A model generated the notes under the pieces. The model was given only the letters and a program-made list of their open reading frames with translations, had not been told where the DNA came from and made no database searches. A program made the translations under genes and the position numbers. From NCBI GenBank assembly GCA_023205875.1, contig CP060758.1, forward strand, positions 62,001 to 126,000: a stretch of DNA of 64,000 nucleotides, read 5' to 3'. The stretch's first letter is position 1. Every line of letters starts with the position of its first letter. The DNA is from Chloropicon primus (lineage: Eukaryota). This document shows positions 1 to 6,683 of the stretch, piece after piece.

Positions 1-847
1 GCAGGACGAACTCGGCCTCGACGGCGTCGATCTGCTTCCACTTGCTCCTCGAGTTCCCCGACAGCATCTCGGAGGAGAACACCAGCTTCTCGGCCGAGTG
101 GTCGCTGACGTACACCGCGGGGTACAGGTGCGGCGCCGTGTGGTGGAGCTTGAGGCTCGCCAGCCTGAGCCGCCGCCCCGCCCCCCCCACCTCCCCCGGG
201 GACTTGAGCAGGAGCTCGTAGTACCTGAGGTACCTCTGCTGGGACGCCAGGGTCAGGCCCTTGCCGTCGTGCGTCCTCCTGAGGTTGTAGTACGCCACGG
301 CCTCCTCCGCGGTGTCCGCGTAGCTCAAGTAGATCAGCAGGCAGCAGATCATCAGCCCCGTCCGGCTCTTCCCCGCCTTGCAGTGCACCACGACCACGTG
401 GCTCATGCTCTGCCTCAGCCACGACTTGGCGGACTCCACGAACGCCTGGATGAGCCGAAGGGGCGGGCAGTTGTGGTCGTCGAAGGGGAAGCTCGCCACC
501 TTCCCGTCGAAGAGCGCCGCGTCGTACGTCCGCTCAGAGCAAAGGTTGTAGATCTTGTACTTCCCCCCGGGGTGCTTCTCGTCCAAGAAAGACGTGACGT
601 GACCCATGTGGTTCCGGTACAAGCCCTCCACGTACCCGAGCACCCCGCTGCTCCGGTCCCCCGCCGGGAACCCCATCGCGATCACGTTCTCCGTGATGTA
701 AGACAAGTCCAAGTCGTACTCGCTGTCCTTGTACCGCCGCTTCTTCTGAGACACCAAAGACCGCGCGAAACGCGTCAGGGCGTTCCCCTTCGAGCGCCCG
801 GAACCACCTCGAGGGCGCGCCATCCGACTCCTCTCGCCATCCGCCAT
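1..847 (-). CDS. PTEN: PTEN-like lipid/protein phosphatase (runs off the window's left edge)
   Basis: Manual minus-strand translation from ATG 847 gives ...LVSQKKRRYKDSEYDLDLSYITENVIAMGFPA... and the catalytic loop VVVHCKAGKSRTG. Not in the ORF track because the stop lies outside the window. Confidence 0.9.
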   Translation of the reverse strand, partial: MADGERSRMARPRGGSGRSKGNALTRFARSLVSQKKRRYKDSEYDLDLSYITENVIAMGFPAGDRSSGVLGYVEGLYRNHMGHVTSFLDEKHPGGKYKIYNLCSERTYDAALFDGKVASFPFDDHNCPPLRLIQAFVESAKSWLRQSMSHVVVVHCKAGKSRTGLMICCLLIYLSYADTAEEAVAYYNLRRTHDGKGLTLASQQRYLRYYELLLKSPGEVGGAGRRLRLASLKLHHTAPHLYPAVYVSDHSAEKLVFSSEMLSGNSRSKWKQIDAVEAEFVL

Positions 848-1022
848 CTCTCCGACTTCTGGCGGCGGCGGGACGGCGGGACACCTCAACCTCGAGGTCG
901 AGACACCTCCGCCACAGCCTCGGCGTCGCTCTCGTCCTCCACAGTCCGCTGCTGCTCTCGCGCTCCACAGTCCGCTGGTGCTCTCGCGCTCCTCGGCGCT
1001 CCGGCTCCATCACACAGCGCTG

Positions 1023-1028
1023 TATAAA
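1023..1028 (+). promoter_or_regulatory. TATA box upstream of the permuted tRNA
   Basis: TATAAA about 25 nt before the leader (1051) that pairs with the tRNA trailer. Confidence 0.55.
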
Positions 1029-1066
1029 GACGAAAATGTGATATGATTCATGTGTACCTAATGGAC

Positions 1067-1246
1067 ATCTAAAGGTCGTGTGTTCGATCCACACTCATCG
1101 CAGTAAAGTCAGCATTTACTCCGCGCGAAACCTACTCACCGCGTGGCACTTGAGATGAACCAAACCCTAATCCAGACTTCCCTCTTACTCTGCCTCGTCG
1201 TACCGTTCGGCGATGATAGCTCAGTTGGGAGAGCGTTAGACTGAAG
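1067..1246 (+). tRNA. trnF-GAA: Circularly permuted tRNA-Phe(GAA): 3' half 1067-1102, 107-nt spacer, 5' half 1210-1246, junction at position 37/38
   Basis: 5' half GCGATGA-TA-GCTC-AGTTGGGA-GAGC-G-TTAGA-CT-GAA-G (37 nt) plus 3' half A-TCTAA-AGGTC-GTGTG-TTCGATC-CACAC-TCATCGC-A (36 nt) gives a cloverleaf with all four stems fully paired. Confidence 0.93.
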
Positions 1247-1703
1247 TTACGGTGCACACCCCAGGAGGAGGCGGCGAAACTACAGTCGCCTCTCCTCTTG
1301 CTCCGCGAGATAAGGGTTCGGTGAGAGACGTTAAATATACGAGCACAATAAGATCACAATAAGATCGTAACGGCGGAGGACGGCGAGGAGGACGAGAAGA
1401 CCGCGACCAGAGAGAGAGCGATGAGTTACCTCCTGGAATACTACAGCCGCGGGTTGCCGACGAAGAAGAGGAGACTGACGAATACTGGGACGTCATGTGA
1501 AGAAGGGGCTGGTGGCGCCACCCCGGCCGCGGTTCTCCAGGGGGATGGCGCCCAAGGATGGCGGGTGGCGCCCAAGGATTGTGGTGCCAATGTCTCTGTC
1601 TTCACCCACTTGCAGGGCAGCGGGCAGCCGTGCGGCAAGCCTGGACACCAACGCTTGCACAGTGGCCATGGCGACCTCCGCGGGACCTCATAGGGAGCGG
1701 GAG

Positions 1704-2585
1704 ATGGCCGCCATCGAGGAGAACGCGGATCCGACGACGCTTCTCAATGCGGATGGACTTCTTGCCTCTCTTCGCTTCGCAGACGAATTAGCTGGCGCGC
1801 CGCCCACCCTTGCACGCGAGGGTACACGGGCGGAGCGAACTCGCGAGCCTGAGGAGCTGACCCTGGTCCGCGTGGTCCGAGGCCGTGGCGGAGTCCACCT
1901 GGAGCGCGTTGCGGGCTTGAAAGAACTGACCCACTGCATCGTCTTCCTCCGCGAGTCCCTTGCGCGGGAGGGGCTTGGGAACAAGCTCGCTGGTCAGGCG
2001 GCCACGATCTCAAGCGCGTTGCTCGGCAAAGATCTTCCTAAACAGGTGAAAGCATTTCGTTTCGTGGAGCTTGGGACCGCCAGCCGCTCGCGATGCCTCA
2101 AGGACCGCAAAGTTCTTACGAAAGCTCTTGCCCTTGCGAAGGAGAAGGGCGAGCCTTGCGCGCTTCTTGTAGCTGCCTTGTCGCGATTGTCGAGACGGTC
2201 ACAAGCTGAAGAGGACCTCGACTACCTTGCTGAGCGCGCAGGGCAGGCCTCTATACTGGCGTGTATCCCGACGTCCCATGCAGCAGCTTTGATTGGGGAG
2301 GAAAAGAAAGAGGAGCTCAAAAAGTACATGAGCAAGGCTGCAAGCACCTCGGACGGGCACGCCGTGTACTCGGCGTCGCACTGCATGCTCAAGTCCGGCG
2401 CCACCCGTTGTTCTGTAGCATCGGGCCAACACACTTCTGAGGAACTTTGTCTCCTCGTCGAACACGTCGAGCACGTCCTGAGGCACAAGCTGGAGAATCT
2501 GGAGAAGCCGGGGGAGCAGAAGCACGGGAAACCCCTTCTCCTCGTATCTTCTTGGAAAGCGCTTTGTGGAGCAACGGGCGAGTGA
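1704..2585 (+). CDS. Serine recombinase/resolvase-like domain protein (ORF1 of putative mobile island)
   Basis: IVFLRES..EG....LAGQ (YxRxS..Q motif), FVELGTAS...DRKVL..AL and LLVAALSRLSR (V..LDRLSR motif) occur in resolvase order and spacing. Start at ATG 1704 is assumed. Confidence 0.65.
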   Translation: MAAIEENADPTTLLNADGLLASLRFADELAGAPPTLAREGTRAERTREPEELTLVRVVRGRGGVHLERVAGLKELTHCIVFLRESLAREGLGNKLAGQAATISSALLGKDLPKQVKAFRFVELGTASRSRCLKDRKVLTKALALAKEKGEPCALLVAALSRLSRRSQAEEDLDYLAERAGQASILACIPTSHAAALIGEEKKEELKKYMSKAASTSDGHAVYSASHCMLKSGATRCSVASGQHTSEELCLLVEHVEHVLRHKLENLEKPGEQKHGKPLLLVSSWKALCGATGE

Positions 2586-3858
2586 TCTCGTCCGCGCATG
2601 GAAGAACCAACCCACAGTTCGTGTGCTCGTCGCTGCTTGTTCCATCACGGAAGCGAACTACGACATCATTCTTCGCGAGGAGCACATGGAGTTCCTGGAG
2701 ACCTGCAGGCAATACTGCCACGTTCACTCCGTGAGGGACGAGTTGTTTGAAAACCGTGATGGACACGGCTTGGATGAAGACGCATTGAGCAGAGTCTTTG
2801 AGTACTTTGCGGATGCACTAAAGGGAGAACATGTCGATGTCGTGTTTGAGAATGAATGTTTCCCAGAAACCGCGATCTCTGTGACTCAAAAAGATTTCTT
2901 CAAATGCTCCTGCGCTGATAAATGCTCTCGCAAGTCGTCCAGGACAACAGGCACCGCGAACACCGCTCCAGCACATACTCGATGCCTTTGTGCTTGTGAC
3001 ATGTGCAAGAGGAGTCGTCCTTGCATTCTGGTGGACAGCGACGCCGAGGACGGCGGGGAGAGGGAGAGAGAGCTTCGGAAATTTGATGCCGCTGCATGTC
3101 CCTGTGAACGTTGCAGCAGCAGCCCCTTGAGCACTGGTACGACAAGGAAGACACAGGCCAAGACCAACACGAAAGGGAAGAGGAAGACCAAAGCAAGGGA
3201 GCCGATGAAGGAGTTTCCTCGACTTCCTACTACAGACGGTACTCAAACCCTGCGCTGCATCTGCTGTGATGCTTTTCGTCGCCCTGAGTGCCCCTTGGTC
3301 AAAACAGGAGCTCTGACACCGGTTCCGGGGGAGGAACGTGATCGAGGTGGGCACAATCCCACTTGCCTCCTCTCGAACTGGTGCTGGTACTGCCACCGCT
3401 TCATCTTCAAAAGTGAGTTTAACCACTGGTGCTCGTTCGACTGCTTCTCGAAAGCCACGAGGGTCGTGGACAAGGGGAAGCTTTGGGACAGGGGCATGGA
3501 AATTGGCATCGAACTGAAGAACACGATTGGTTTTTGGTTTTGTGATCCGTGTACAAAGAAATCGGAGTCCGAGAAAACCTTGATCCCAATCAAGAGTTCA
3601 TATGGCTTGAAGTGCTGGAGATGCAAATATGGACATGGCAAAATCGGCAAGGGGTGCGAGGAGAACGCAGGAGGAGGCGGCGTGAACATGCAGCGCGCAA
3701 ACATGCAGCGCGCAAAAATTGGTGAGAACAGAAAGGCCAAAGAGGTAGTGATCCGGCATCCAATGCTCGTCAAAATGATACTCATGATGCTTGAGAACAA
3801 TAGCGAGGTGAATACGGAGCAAGCGAAACCAGGGGAGGAGTCGGAGAAGGAGATCTAA
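2566..3858 (+). CDS. Cys-rich protein, probably the frameshifted continuation of the recombinase ORF
   Basis: 430-aa ORF with many CxC/CxxC clusters (CSCADKC, CLCACDMC, CPCERC, CICCD, CWYCH, CSFDC, CDPC, CWRC). It overlaps the ORF1 end in the +1 frame and begins with GTG rather than ATG. Confidence 0.55.
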   Translation: MEQRASDLVRAWKNQPTVRVLVAACSITEANYDIILREEHMEFLETCRQYCHVHSVRDELFENRDGHGLDEDALSRVFEYFADALKGEHVDVVFENECFPETAISVTQKDFFKCSCADKCSRKSSRTTGTANTAPAHTRCLCACDMCKRSRPCILVDSDAEDGGERERELRKFDAAACPCERCSSSPLSTGTTRKTQAKTNTKGKRKTKAREPMKEFPRLPTTDGTQTLRCICCDAFRRPECPLVKTGALTPVPGEERDRGGHNPTCLLSNWCWYCHRFIFKSEFNHWCSFDCFSKATRVVDKGKLWDRGMEIGIELKNTIGFWFCDPCTKKSESEKTLIPIKSSYGLKCWRCKYGHGKIGKGCEENAGGGGVNMQRANMQRAKIGENRKAKEVVIRHPMLVKMILMMLENNSEVNTEQAKPGEESEKEI

Positions 3859-4363
3859 AACTCAGTGGGCTCGAAGCCAGGGCCATTGGATATCTTTGCG
3901 GGAGGAATGGTTGGCGGAGCACGAACTTTTCGAGAAGGAAGATTATATCCCAAGCCGAAAAGCATTGAAGGCCAAGTACATGGCCGAGGTCAAGAAGAAG
4001 AAGCCGACGCCTGACACTACGTCACAGCTCGCGACCGGCAGCACCACCTCTGCCCTCCCTAACGCTGGTGTTGCTCGAGGGTCAGCAGGGCGGGAGCTGA
4101 CGTTCACCACCCAGCTACAGGGAGTGGGGCAGGGGCGTGGATCGGGGACACTGCGTGAGGTTCCTCTGCCTAAAACGGCTATCAAGGCCCTTGCAGCTAC
4201 GGCTTGGCCTCTACGAATCGCGGAGGTCAAGCTCATCAACAATTGCCTCGATGAGGAGTCGATGATTCTCGTCGCCGCGATGCTGTCTTCGGATGCAGGG
4301 GGAGGTGGGTCGCAGAAGGAGGCACCCGAGGGCCTTGGAACTCAGAATCGCCAGCGCGCACCC

Positions 4364-4436
4364 TCTCCCTCTCTCCTCCTCTCCTCTCCTCCTCTCCTCT
4401 CCTCTCTCCTCTCCTCTCCTCTCCTCTCCTCTCTTC
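4364..4436. repeat. (CTCCT)n pyrimidine microsatellite
   Basis: Visible CT/CTCCT run. Confidence 0.85.
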
Positions 4437-4859
4437 TTGTCCGTTGGTTCTTCCGTCTTAAAATCGATCCAAGACAGAACAGGAGACAAGAGACAAACAA
4501 ACACTAACACCAACACCAACACGAGCAACACCAACAACACAAGAGTCTCGTTCCTTACGATCGAGTTGTTCTTCGAGTCGCTCTCGGCGTTGCGTTGCCA
4601 AAGGTCCCGCCTTTGCACACCACACCATAGTGTTCTATTCGTCTATGTGTGTTTGTGATCCTCAACAACAACAACGAGCCAAAGGAGGATGAGGCTCAGC
4701 AGCGAGAACAAGAAGAACAAGACGACGACGACGAAGAAGAAGACGAGCAGCAGCAGCAGCACGAGCTGGTGAGGAAGGACGCGGGAACTGCATTTCTCAT
4801 TTCTCAGAAGAATCTGCTGCCTCGACCACCTCAAGCCACAGGTGGTCATCATCATCATC

Positions 4860-6683
4860 ATGGCCCTGACGTGCGCCACGACCGTCCTGCGGCCCCCATC
4901 CACCTGCTACGACGGCGACGACTGCGACGAGGAGCTCTCCCTCAGCAGCACGTTCTCCTCCTCCTCCCAGGAGTCCGTGTCCCAGTCCTTCAGCGAGGAG
5001 CCCCCGCTGCCGTCCAGGGACAGCAGCTGCTCCTCGCTGAGGTCCCTTTCCCTGTCAGTCTCGTCGTCGGAACCCAGCAGCAGCAACAACAGCAACAACA
5101 GCAGCACGCAGTACCTCGTGGAGCGCTCCAAGTTCGTGGGGACGCCCCCCACGGTGTTCTTCGGGACGGACGCCAACCCCCCCAGCGAGGAGGCCGCGGC
5201 ACTGCCTCAGGTCCTCCCCAAGGTGTTCCTCAAGTACACCGGGGTGAACTGCAACGTGGTCAAGCAAGCCTTCGCGAGGGCGGGGTTCAGGAACTGCCCC
5301 AAGGACAAGGACCACTTCAACGCGGTGTGGGCCTCGCCCATGAAGGTGAACCACTTCCAAAGCTTCAAGGCGTACCAGAAGGTGAACCACTTTCCGGGGA
5401 CGTGGGAGCTGGGGAGGAAGGACAGGCTGTACCGGAACATCTCCAAGATGAGGCGGCGGCACGGGGACAAGTACGACATCCTTCCCTTTGCGTTCGAGCT
5501 CCCCGGGGACTACGACGAGTTCCTCAAGGACTGGGAGAGGAGGCCCAACCAGTGGTACATCATCAAGCCCAGGTCGTCCTCCAGGGGCAGGGGGATCAAG
5601 CTGCTGAAGAAGCTGAGCGACGTGGAGAAGAAGAAGTCCGGCCCGAGGGAGTGCATCGTCCAGAGGTACATCAAGGACCCCCTGCTGATCGACGGGTACA
5701 AGTTCGACATGAGGGTGTACGTCCTGGTGACGTGCTTCGACCCCCTGAGGGTGTACGTCGCGAGGGAGGGCCTCGCGAGGTTCGCCACGGAGCCCTACTC
5801 GAGCGACTCGAGCAAGATGAAGTCCAGGAGGTGCCACCTGACGAACGTGAGCATCAACAGCAAGAGCAAGAAGTTCGTGGTGAACCAGGACGCGGCCAAG
5901 GACGGGGAGGGGAGCAAGTGGACGCTCTCCGCCCTGCGGAGGCACCTCGAGTCCAACGAGGAGTTCGGGGTGACCTCGTGGGAGGAGCAGATCTGGTCCC
6001 AGGTCAAGGACCTCGTCATCAAGGCGGTGATCTCCGTGGACGCCAAGGTCAACACCCTGGTCAAGATGCACGTGCCGGGGAACAACTGCTTCGAGCTGTA
6101 CGGCGCGGACGTAATGCTGGACTCCAAGCTCAAGGCCTGGCTCATCGAGTTCAACACCGGGCCCGCCCTGAACACCCCGACGCCCCTGGACAAGGCCGTC
6201 AAGTCCCGGGTGGTGACCGACATGTTCCACATCGTGGGCTTCGCCCCGGTGGACAAGAAGAAGCACGAGAGGGGCGTCCAGGCGTCCAGGCAGAACAGGC
6301 TGACCGGCATCGGGCTGCAGAAAATGAGCGCGACTCACAGGGACACGAACCAGGCGCAGACCATGGTCTTCGACGGGGTGAAGGAGAGCCACCTGCCCGA
6401 CGTGGTGAGGGAGACCGAGGCCGAGCACAGGAGGAGCGTCGACAGGGTCTTCGAGCGGGCCTTCCCCTGCTCGGCGAGACCCTCCGCGTACCACAGCCTC
6501 TTCGAGGTCCAGAGGTACAACAACATCGTGGTCAAGAGGTGGCTCATCTCCGAGAGGAGGAAGAGGATCCGGCTCGAGAGGGAGAGGGCGGAGCAGGAGG
6601 AGGAGGCGAAGAGGACAATGATGGAGTCGCCCAAGGTGGACGACGCCTTGCAAGCCACCGCCGCCGCCGTCGCGGCCACCTGA
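4860..6683 (+). CDS. TTLL4: Tubulin-tyrosine ligase-like polyglutamylase (TTLL4/5 type)
   Basis: Motifs QKVNHFPG, IIKP.SSSRGRGI, VQRYI..PLLIDGYKFDMRVYVLVT, GLARFAT, HLTN.SIN, CFELYGADVMLD, WLIEFN..P. Confidence 0.9.
   Translation: MALTCATTVLRPPSTCYDGDDCDEELSLSSTFSSSSQESVSQSFSEEPPLPSRDSSCSSLRSLSLSVSSSEPSSSNNSNNSSTQYLVERSKFVGTPPTVFFGTDANPPSEEAAALPQVLPKVFLKYTGVNCNVVKQAFARAGFRNCPKDKDHFNAVWASPMKVNHFQSFKAYQKVNHFPGTWELGRKDRLYRNISKMRRRHGDKYDILPFAFELPGDYDEFLKDWERRPNQWYIIKPRSSSRGRGIKLLKKLSDVEKKKSGPRECIVQRYIKDPLLIDGYKFDMRVYVLVTCFDPLRVYVAREGLARFATEPYSSDSSKMKSRRCHLTNVSINSKSKKFVVNQDAAKDGEGSKWTLSALRRHLESNEEFGVTSWEEQIWSQVKDLVIKAVISVDAKVNTLVKMHVPGNNCFELYGADVMLDSKLKAWLIEFNTGPALNTPTPLDKAVKSRVVTDMFHIVGFAPVDKKKHERGVQASRQNRLTGIGLQKMSATHRDTNQAQTMVFDGVKESHLPDVVRETEAEHRRSVDRVFERAFPCSARPSAYHSLFEVQRYNNIVVKRWLISERRKRIRLERERAEQEEEAKRTMMESPKVDDALQATAAAVAAT

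Follow-up and report, generated by a model that had tools for sequence, protein, structure and literature searches.

A probable circularly permuted nuclear gene for tRNA-Phe(GAA) in the alga Chloropicon primus

Introduction

Can a tRNA be produced from a locus in which its 3′ half lies upstream of its 5′ half? The question is raised by a locus of Chloropicon primus near the beginning of a 64,000-nucleotide stretch of DNA (contig CP060758.1 of assembly GCA_023205875.1, positions 62,001–126,000, forward strand), which is referred to as the window and within which all positions are given. Chloropicon is a minute green alga of the sea. Permuted tRNA genes are rare and patchily distributed, and it is debated whether they are ancient or arose repeatedly. 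The mechanism of their maturation has itself been known since 2007. Based on the analogy to permuted tRNA genes of other algae, we propose that the locus is a Chloropicon nuclear tRNA-Phe(GAA) gene, whose single transcript likely passes through a circular intermediate on its way to a working tRNA. We estimate the probability of this reading at about 0.85.

The two halves form a complete tRNA-Phe

The tRNA's 3′ half (positions 38–73, 36 nt) occupies nucleotides 1067–1102 of the + strand, and the 5′ half (positions 1–37, 37 nt) nucleotides 1210–1246, as identified from the sequence, by ARAGORN, and by a permuted-tRNA scanner. The two halves are separated by 107 nt. An earlier note on this DNA had described the boundaries of the halves, the gap, and the swapped order, and re-reading of the sequence showed all of them to be correct. 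The 3′ half contains the 3′ strand of the anticodon stem, the variable loop, the T arm with the B box, and the 3′ strand of the acceptor stem, and it ends in the discriminator base A73; CCA is not encoded. The 5′ half contains the 5′ strand of the acceptor stem, the D arm with the A box and G20, the 5′ strand of the anticodon stem, the anticodon GAA, and G37. When the halves were joined by their coordinates, ARAGORN identified a tRNA-Phe(gaa) of 73 nt with all 21 of 21 stem pairs of the Watson-Crick type, which bears out the earlier claim that joining at 37/38 yields a perfect cloverleaf. Insertion of the trailer and leader between the halves resulted in the identical tRNA with an intron at 37–38. 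The junction between G37 (nucleotide 1246) and A38 (nucleotide 1067) is unambiguous, with no base repeated across it.

The joined tRNA-Phe contains the consensus bases U8, A14, G15:C48, G18G19, G20, A21, U33, G37, A73, and the 53–61 T-loop. G20, G34-A35-A36, and A73 presumably constitute the eukaryotic PheRS identity set, and we take G37, G20, and the absence of an encoded CCA to be marks of a cytosolic eukaryotic tRNA. An organellar origin of the tRNA-Phe was considered and rejected on the basis of G20, G37, the missing CCA, and the position of the locus between nuclear genes.

ARAGORN found no tRNA gene in the 64-kb window as it stands, and Rfam searches of nucleotides 1–5000 and 1000–1420 returned no tRNA match. 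Therefore, standard scanners miss the permuted tRNA-Phe, as the earlier note had anticipated. A generic scanner for permuted tRNAs identified a single locus in the 64-kb window, with 21 of 21 pairs; a second line of its output referred to this locus again, read with an extended variable loop. The same scanner applied to both strands of 200 dinucleotide-shuffled windows produced two matches, both in one shuffle, the better of which had 18 of 21 pairs. The observation of a tRNA with swapped halves is real and far beyond chance. Neither remnants of outer exons nor a second copy of the tRNA-Phe were found in the 64-kb window.

The putative leader and trailer resemble the ends of an intron

The 3′ half is preceded by a leader (1051–1066, + strand; sequence, fold, and register analysis) and the 5′ half is followed by a trailer (1247–1258, + strand; sequence and fold). 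Nucleotides 1051–1058 of the leader and 1251–1258 of the trailer form an outer helix of eight base pairs, including one G-U, which was present in all three folds computed. In the fold of nucleotides 1045–1265, the pair probability is 1.0 for seven of the eight pairs and 0.76 for the terminal one. Three inner base pairs connect nucleotides 1059–1061 with 1247–1249 around the bulged C1250. The pairing of eight plus three base pairs that had been claimed for the leader and trailer was thus reproduced. By chance, eight contiguous base pairs were reached by 5.3% of random window pairs and by 2.9% of shuffled leaders (20,000 each), and a duplex energy equal to or better than that of the native pair by 12.9% and 1.1%, respectively. 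Taken alone, the outer helix is only modestly above chance (1–13%, depending on the null model).

The remaining part of the leader would form the 3′ cut site. G1064, position −3 relative to the cut, can pair with C32 in an anticodon-intron pair, and A1065 and C1066 (−2 and −1) together with A38 would constitute a three-nucleotide bulge, with the predicted cut after its second base. Additional central pairs are possible between U33 and G(−4) and between G34 and U(−5), with A35 facing A(−6). At the 5′ site, the alternatives are a bulge of A36, G37, and U(+1), which corresponds to the BHB register, or the inner three-base-pair helix. The central helix is weak, with three pairs (one G-C and two G-U) and an A-A mismatch, and a four-base-pair helix is absent. 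According to the energy model, formation of the central helix costs 3.0 kcal/mol (−26.0 to −27.9 kcal/mol with the helix versus −29.0 kcal/mol without it), and the inner three base pairs alone give −29.9 kcal/mol. The modelled junction fits the relaxed bulge-helix (hBH) motif and not the strict BHB. Both the relaxed motif and the anticodon-intron pair have been described for type II genes of green algae, in the accessible part of PMC3978253.

The predicted minimum-energy fold of the whole precursor is not a cloverleaf. The 3′ part of the spacer pairs with the 5′ half in a structure that is 5.9 kcal/mol lower in energy than the cloverleaf form. Since 19% of 300 shuffled spacers misfolded as badly, this misfold is not special; it provides no support for the gene either.

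Transcription signals and proposed maturation

The sequence TATAAA at 1023–1028, which the earlier note had placed upstream of the halves, was found there and is a likely promoter element, a function inferred from its position. No other TATAAA is present on the + strand of the 64-kb window, compared to seven on the − strand. From the end of the element to the 3′ half the distance is 39 nt, which falls within the 50 bp that are described for permuted genes in the literature. It could also serve the divergent gene of a PTEN-like phosphatase located upstream. Two 26-nt direct repeats (88% identical) are present at 928–979, between the start of the PTEN gene and the TATA box. The distance to the TATA box places the putative start of the transcript at A1050.

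A maturation route can be proposed by analogy to the pathway described for Cyanidioschyzon merolae and for the Mamiellophyceae and other green algae (PMC3978253, in the sections available). Polymerase III would be recruited through the upstream TATA box, because the A and B boxes stand in reverse order. Pairing of the leader with the trailer would make the ends of the precursor resemble an intron at 37/38. The tRNA splicing endonuclease would make one cut at the C1066/A38 boundary and another where G37 meets the trailer, and a tRNA ligase would join G37 to A38, resulting in a circle of 180 nt. RNase P and tRNase Z may then remove the 107-nt spacer (1103–1209, + strand, delimited by joining the halves by coordinates) before CCA is added. 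The mature tRNA-Phe would read the codons UUC and UUU. The locus probably goes back to an intron-containing tRNA-Phe gene that was duplicated in tandem and then lost its outer exons. The leader and trailer would then be the two ends of the former intron, and their intron-like pairing agrees with such an origin.

The downstream side of the locus is less typical. No T-run terminator of polymerase III was found within about 2 kb downstream; the first TTT is at 2055 (approximately 800 nt away) and the first TTTT at 3273. This absence, which the earlier note had not mentioned, weighs against the proposed gene, as do the weak central helix and the competing fold of the spacer. A G+C-rich hairpin predicted by folding (1262–1300, + strand) directly follows the trailer, where a T-run would be expected. 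The segment 1259–1310 folds at −24.3 kcal/mol (z −2.69), and two of 200 dinucleotide shuffles folded as well; the region was picked post hoc. Most permuted genes of C. merolae have a downstream T-stretch, and for green algae only an AT-rich upstream region is named in the accessible part of PMC3978253. Furthermore, downstream T residues are reported to be fewer in algal tRNA genes than in those of angiosperms (PMC13578239, seen in part). A T-run terminator is a typical rather than a defining feature of type II permuted genes. Farther downstream, a tandem 11-nt repeat (1346–1367, + strand) is located just past an AT-rich TATA-like stretch (1331–1339) and upstream of the next open reading frame.

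The missing terminator also speaks for the possibility that the locus is a silent relic, in which the inner halves originated from a recent tandem duplication or rearrangement of a normal tRNA-Phe gene and remain unprocessed, while a conventional tRNA-Phe encoded elsewhere does the work. The lineage-specific open reading frame with a weak resolvase match just downstream might mark such a rearrangement. However, the outer exons left no trace in the window, yet the inner halves are free of defects in all their pairs. Moreover, the break is exactly at 37/38, the leader and trailer pair, and the TATA box is at the expected distance. We consider a relic improbable.

The length of the spacer and a TTT within it, 12 nt past the discriminator, might instead indicate a split tRNA, assembled by trans-splicing of two transcripts, or a tRNA look-alike that does not decode. 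Nevertheless, there is no TATAAA or TATA[AT]A between the two halves. The junction is at the canonical splice site of the anticodon loop rather than in the D loop, joining the halves yields an intact anticodon arm, and the split tRNAs in the literature found, part of which was accessible, are archaeal. These explanations are very improbable. An assembly artefact that swapped the halves is the least credible alternative, since a faulty join would not fall precisely at 37/38, nor would it supply unique flanks that complement each other together with a 107-nt spacer that is itself unique, and no repeat is present at the junctions.

We also considered whether the spacer contains a hidden small RNA, which received no support, since there was no Rfam match at E ≤ 10 and the spacer folded no better than its shuffles (z −0.33). 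The spacer contains the motif AAACCCTA at 1162–1169, which is its sole copy on the + strand of the window and which we take to resemble the telo-box promoter motif of plants. The sequence AAACCTA is also present in the spacer, at 1128.

Relation to known permuted tRNA genes

The anatomy of the C. primus locus, which we interpret as a permuted gene with a single transcript, matches that of the type II (37/38) circularly permuted tRNA genes defined in the accessible part of Soma 2014 (PMC3978253), and this supports the interpretation as a permuted tRNA gene given in the earlier note. The table of that paper lists 34 permuted genes with spacers of 1–74 nt, among which neither Phe nor the Chloropicophyceae appear. 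The closest counterparts are the type II genes of Mamiellophyceae (Ostreococcus and Micromonas) and of the nucleomorph of Bigelowiella natans (Maruyama et al. 2010, listed in the table of PMC3978253). They share with the C. primus locus the 3′ half in first place, the 37/38 junction, a relaxed bulge-helix motif of the kind predicted for C. primus, an AT-rich or TATA element upstream, the lack of an encoded CCA, and a compact green-algal nuclear genome. Their spacers are 5–64 nt long, whereas that of C. primus is 107 nt, and the green-algal isotypes in the table are Ser, Cys, Leu, iMet, Arg, and Asn, in contrast to Phe here. The nucleomorph of Amorphochlora contains two permuted Ser genes, according to the part of PMC4494063 that was available.

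The permuted genes of C. merolae (Soma et al. 2007, 2013, as reviewed in PMC3978253) are the source of the circular-intermediate pathway. Six of the eleven are of type II. As in C. primus, a TATA-like box is located at most 50 bp upstream. However, their spacers are 7–74 nt long, Phe is not among their isotypes, and a T-stretch follows most of them, unlike the C. primus locus with its 107-nt spacer, Phe isotype, and lack of a T-run. The permuted genes of Auxenochlorella UTEX 250-A (Trebouxiophyceae) escaped tRNAscan-SE and were identified manually, and in its trnP-UGG the split coincides with the exon boundary in the intron-containing Chlamydomonas gene (PMC12636532, in part). Auxenochlorella belongs to a different class from Chloropicon, and the comparison rests on the Pro example shown in the available parts of PMC12633428 and PMC12636532.

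Neither the Phe isotype nor a host from the Chloropicophyceae, about which the earlier note had been uncertain, occurs among the reports found. The literature searched, including the re-annotation of O. tauri and the PlantRNA 2.0 paper, mentions no permuted tRNA in Chloropicophyceae and no permuted nuclear tRNA-Phe in the parts accessible. A 2026 review does not mention Chloropicon in the part accessible, and the main text of a paper on plant anticodon tables does not tabulate it. The two Chloropicon genome papers relied on tRNAscan-SE alone, with 46 tRNA genes reported for C. primus and 39–42 for C. roscoffensis (PMC6731263, PMC12301720). The string "permut" is absent from their main texts and from the supplements available (20 of 20 files for PMC6731263 and one file for PMC12301720), which fits the earlier suggestion that the gene is probably unannotated. 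As tRNAscan-SE counts only 39–46 genes in Chloropicon, there is room for hidden tRNA genes, and the published account of Auxenochlorella, as far as available, shows the same pattern. Relative to the literature found in full or in part, the locus is new in its host class, Chloropicophyceae, in its Phe isotype, and in the length of its spacer, which exceeds all those catalogued in 2014.

According to the accessible Chloropicon genome literature, the Chloropicophyceae are closer to core chlorophytes than the Mamiellophyceae are. A permuted Phe gene in this class fills a gap between the cases from Mamiellophyceae and the 2025 case of Auxenochlorella. The new isotype speaks for permuted genes having arisen repeatedly, from intron-containing genes of lineages with permissive promoters and splicing enzymes. 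A further implication is that annotation by tRNAscan-SE leaves gaps in the tRNA sets of Chloropicon. With its 107-nt spacer and without a T-run, the locus allows a direct test of the spacer length that the pathway can tolerate and of how such precursors end. We can only speculate about the strongest version of the proposal, in which the locus is the sole tRNA-Phe gene of the alga, so that every Phe codon depends on a permuted gene. In this version, no permuted tRNA known before would decode Phe or come from Chloropicophyceae, no recorded spacer would be longer, and there would be no T-run terminator, the 3′ end being set by the downstream hairpin or by a splicing-endonuclease cut of a long read-through transcript. 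That all these statements hold together is rather doubtful.

Genomic surroundings of the locus

The gene upstream of the locus (2–844, − strand) is divergent, runs off the window, and encodes a PTEN-like phosphatase with matches to Pfam PTEN2_C2 and DSPc. Its closest named relative is a tensin phosphatase of C. roscoffensis (79%). This neighbour with its Chloropicon relative shows that the locus lies in the Chloropicon nuclear genome. Homologous loci were sought with an alignment of PTEN in metagenomes, where the best 80 of 265 relatives were taken as 79 loci. None of the 79 contained a permuted tRNA, and the two closest stop short of the upstream DNA. These two, L001 (77%) and L002 (84%), are the only Chloropicon-like loci among the 79, and they contain 44 nt and 2 nt, respectively, upstream of the PTEN match, which is too short to reach the tRNA. 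ARAGORN made one unrelated call in the 79 loci, a tRNA-Arg(CCG) whose 27-nt intron would be at the unusual position 31 on the metagenome contig of L060 (c2804-2921), which may be false. A scan of prokaryote genomes with PTEN gave no relatives.

Downstream of the tRNA-Phe locus are two overlapping, lineage-specific open reading frames, 1704–2585 and 2566–3858 (+ strand), with GC3 values of 0.66 and 0.62, respectively, versus 0.95–0.97 in the PTEN gene and in a TTL (tubulin-tyrosine ligase-like) gene. The first has a weak, sub-threshold match to Resolvase (E 0.0035) and two relatives in total. The downstream open reading frame is nearly identical, except for a gap, to a hypothetical protein of C. 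primus, in agreement with C. primus as the likely host. A second resolvase-like stretch, identified by eye, seems to cross a frame change into the cysteine-rich open reading frame 2566–3858. An Atlas search with the latter gave no match, and a scan of viral contigs with the downstream open reading frame gave no relatives. The two frames are possibly a degenerate gene of mobile or viral origin. A search for a mobile element beside the tRNA gene gave no convincing terminal repeats, and the Resolvase match is below the threshold. The TTL gene is located at 4842–6683 (+ strand; E 4.5e-84), and Chloropicon is described as lacking flagella in the part of its genome literature that was available.
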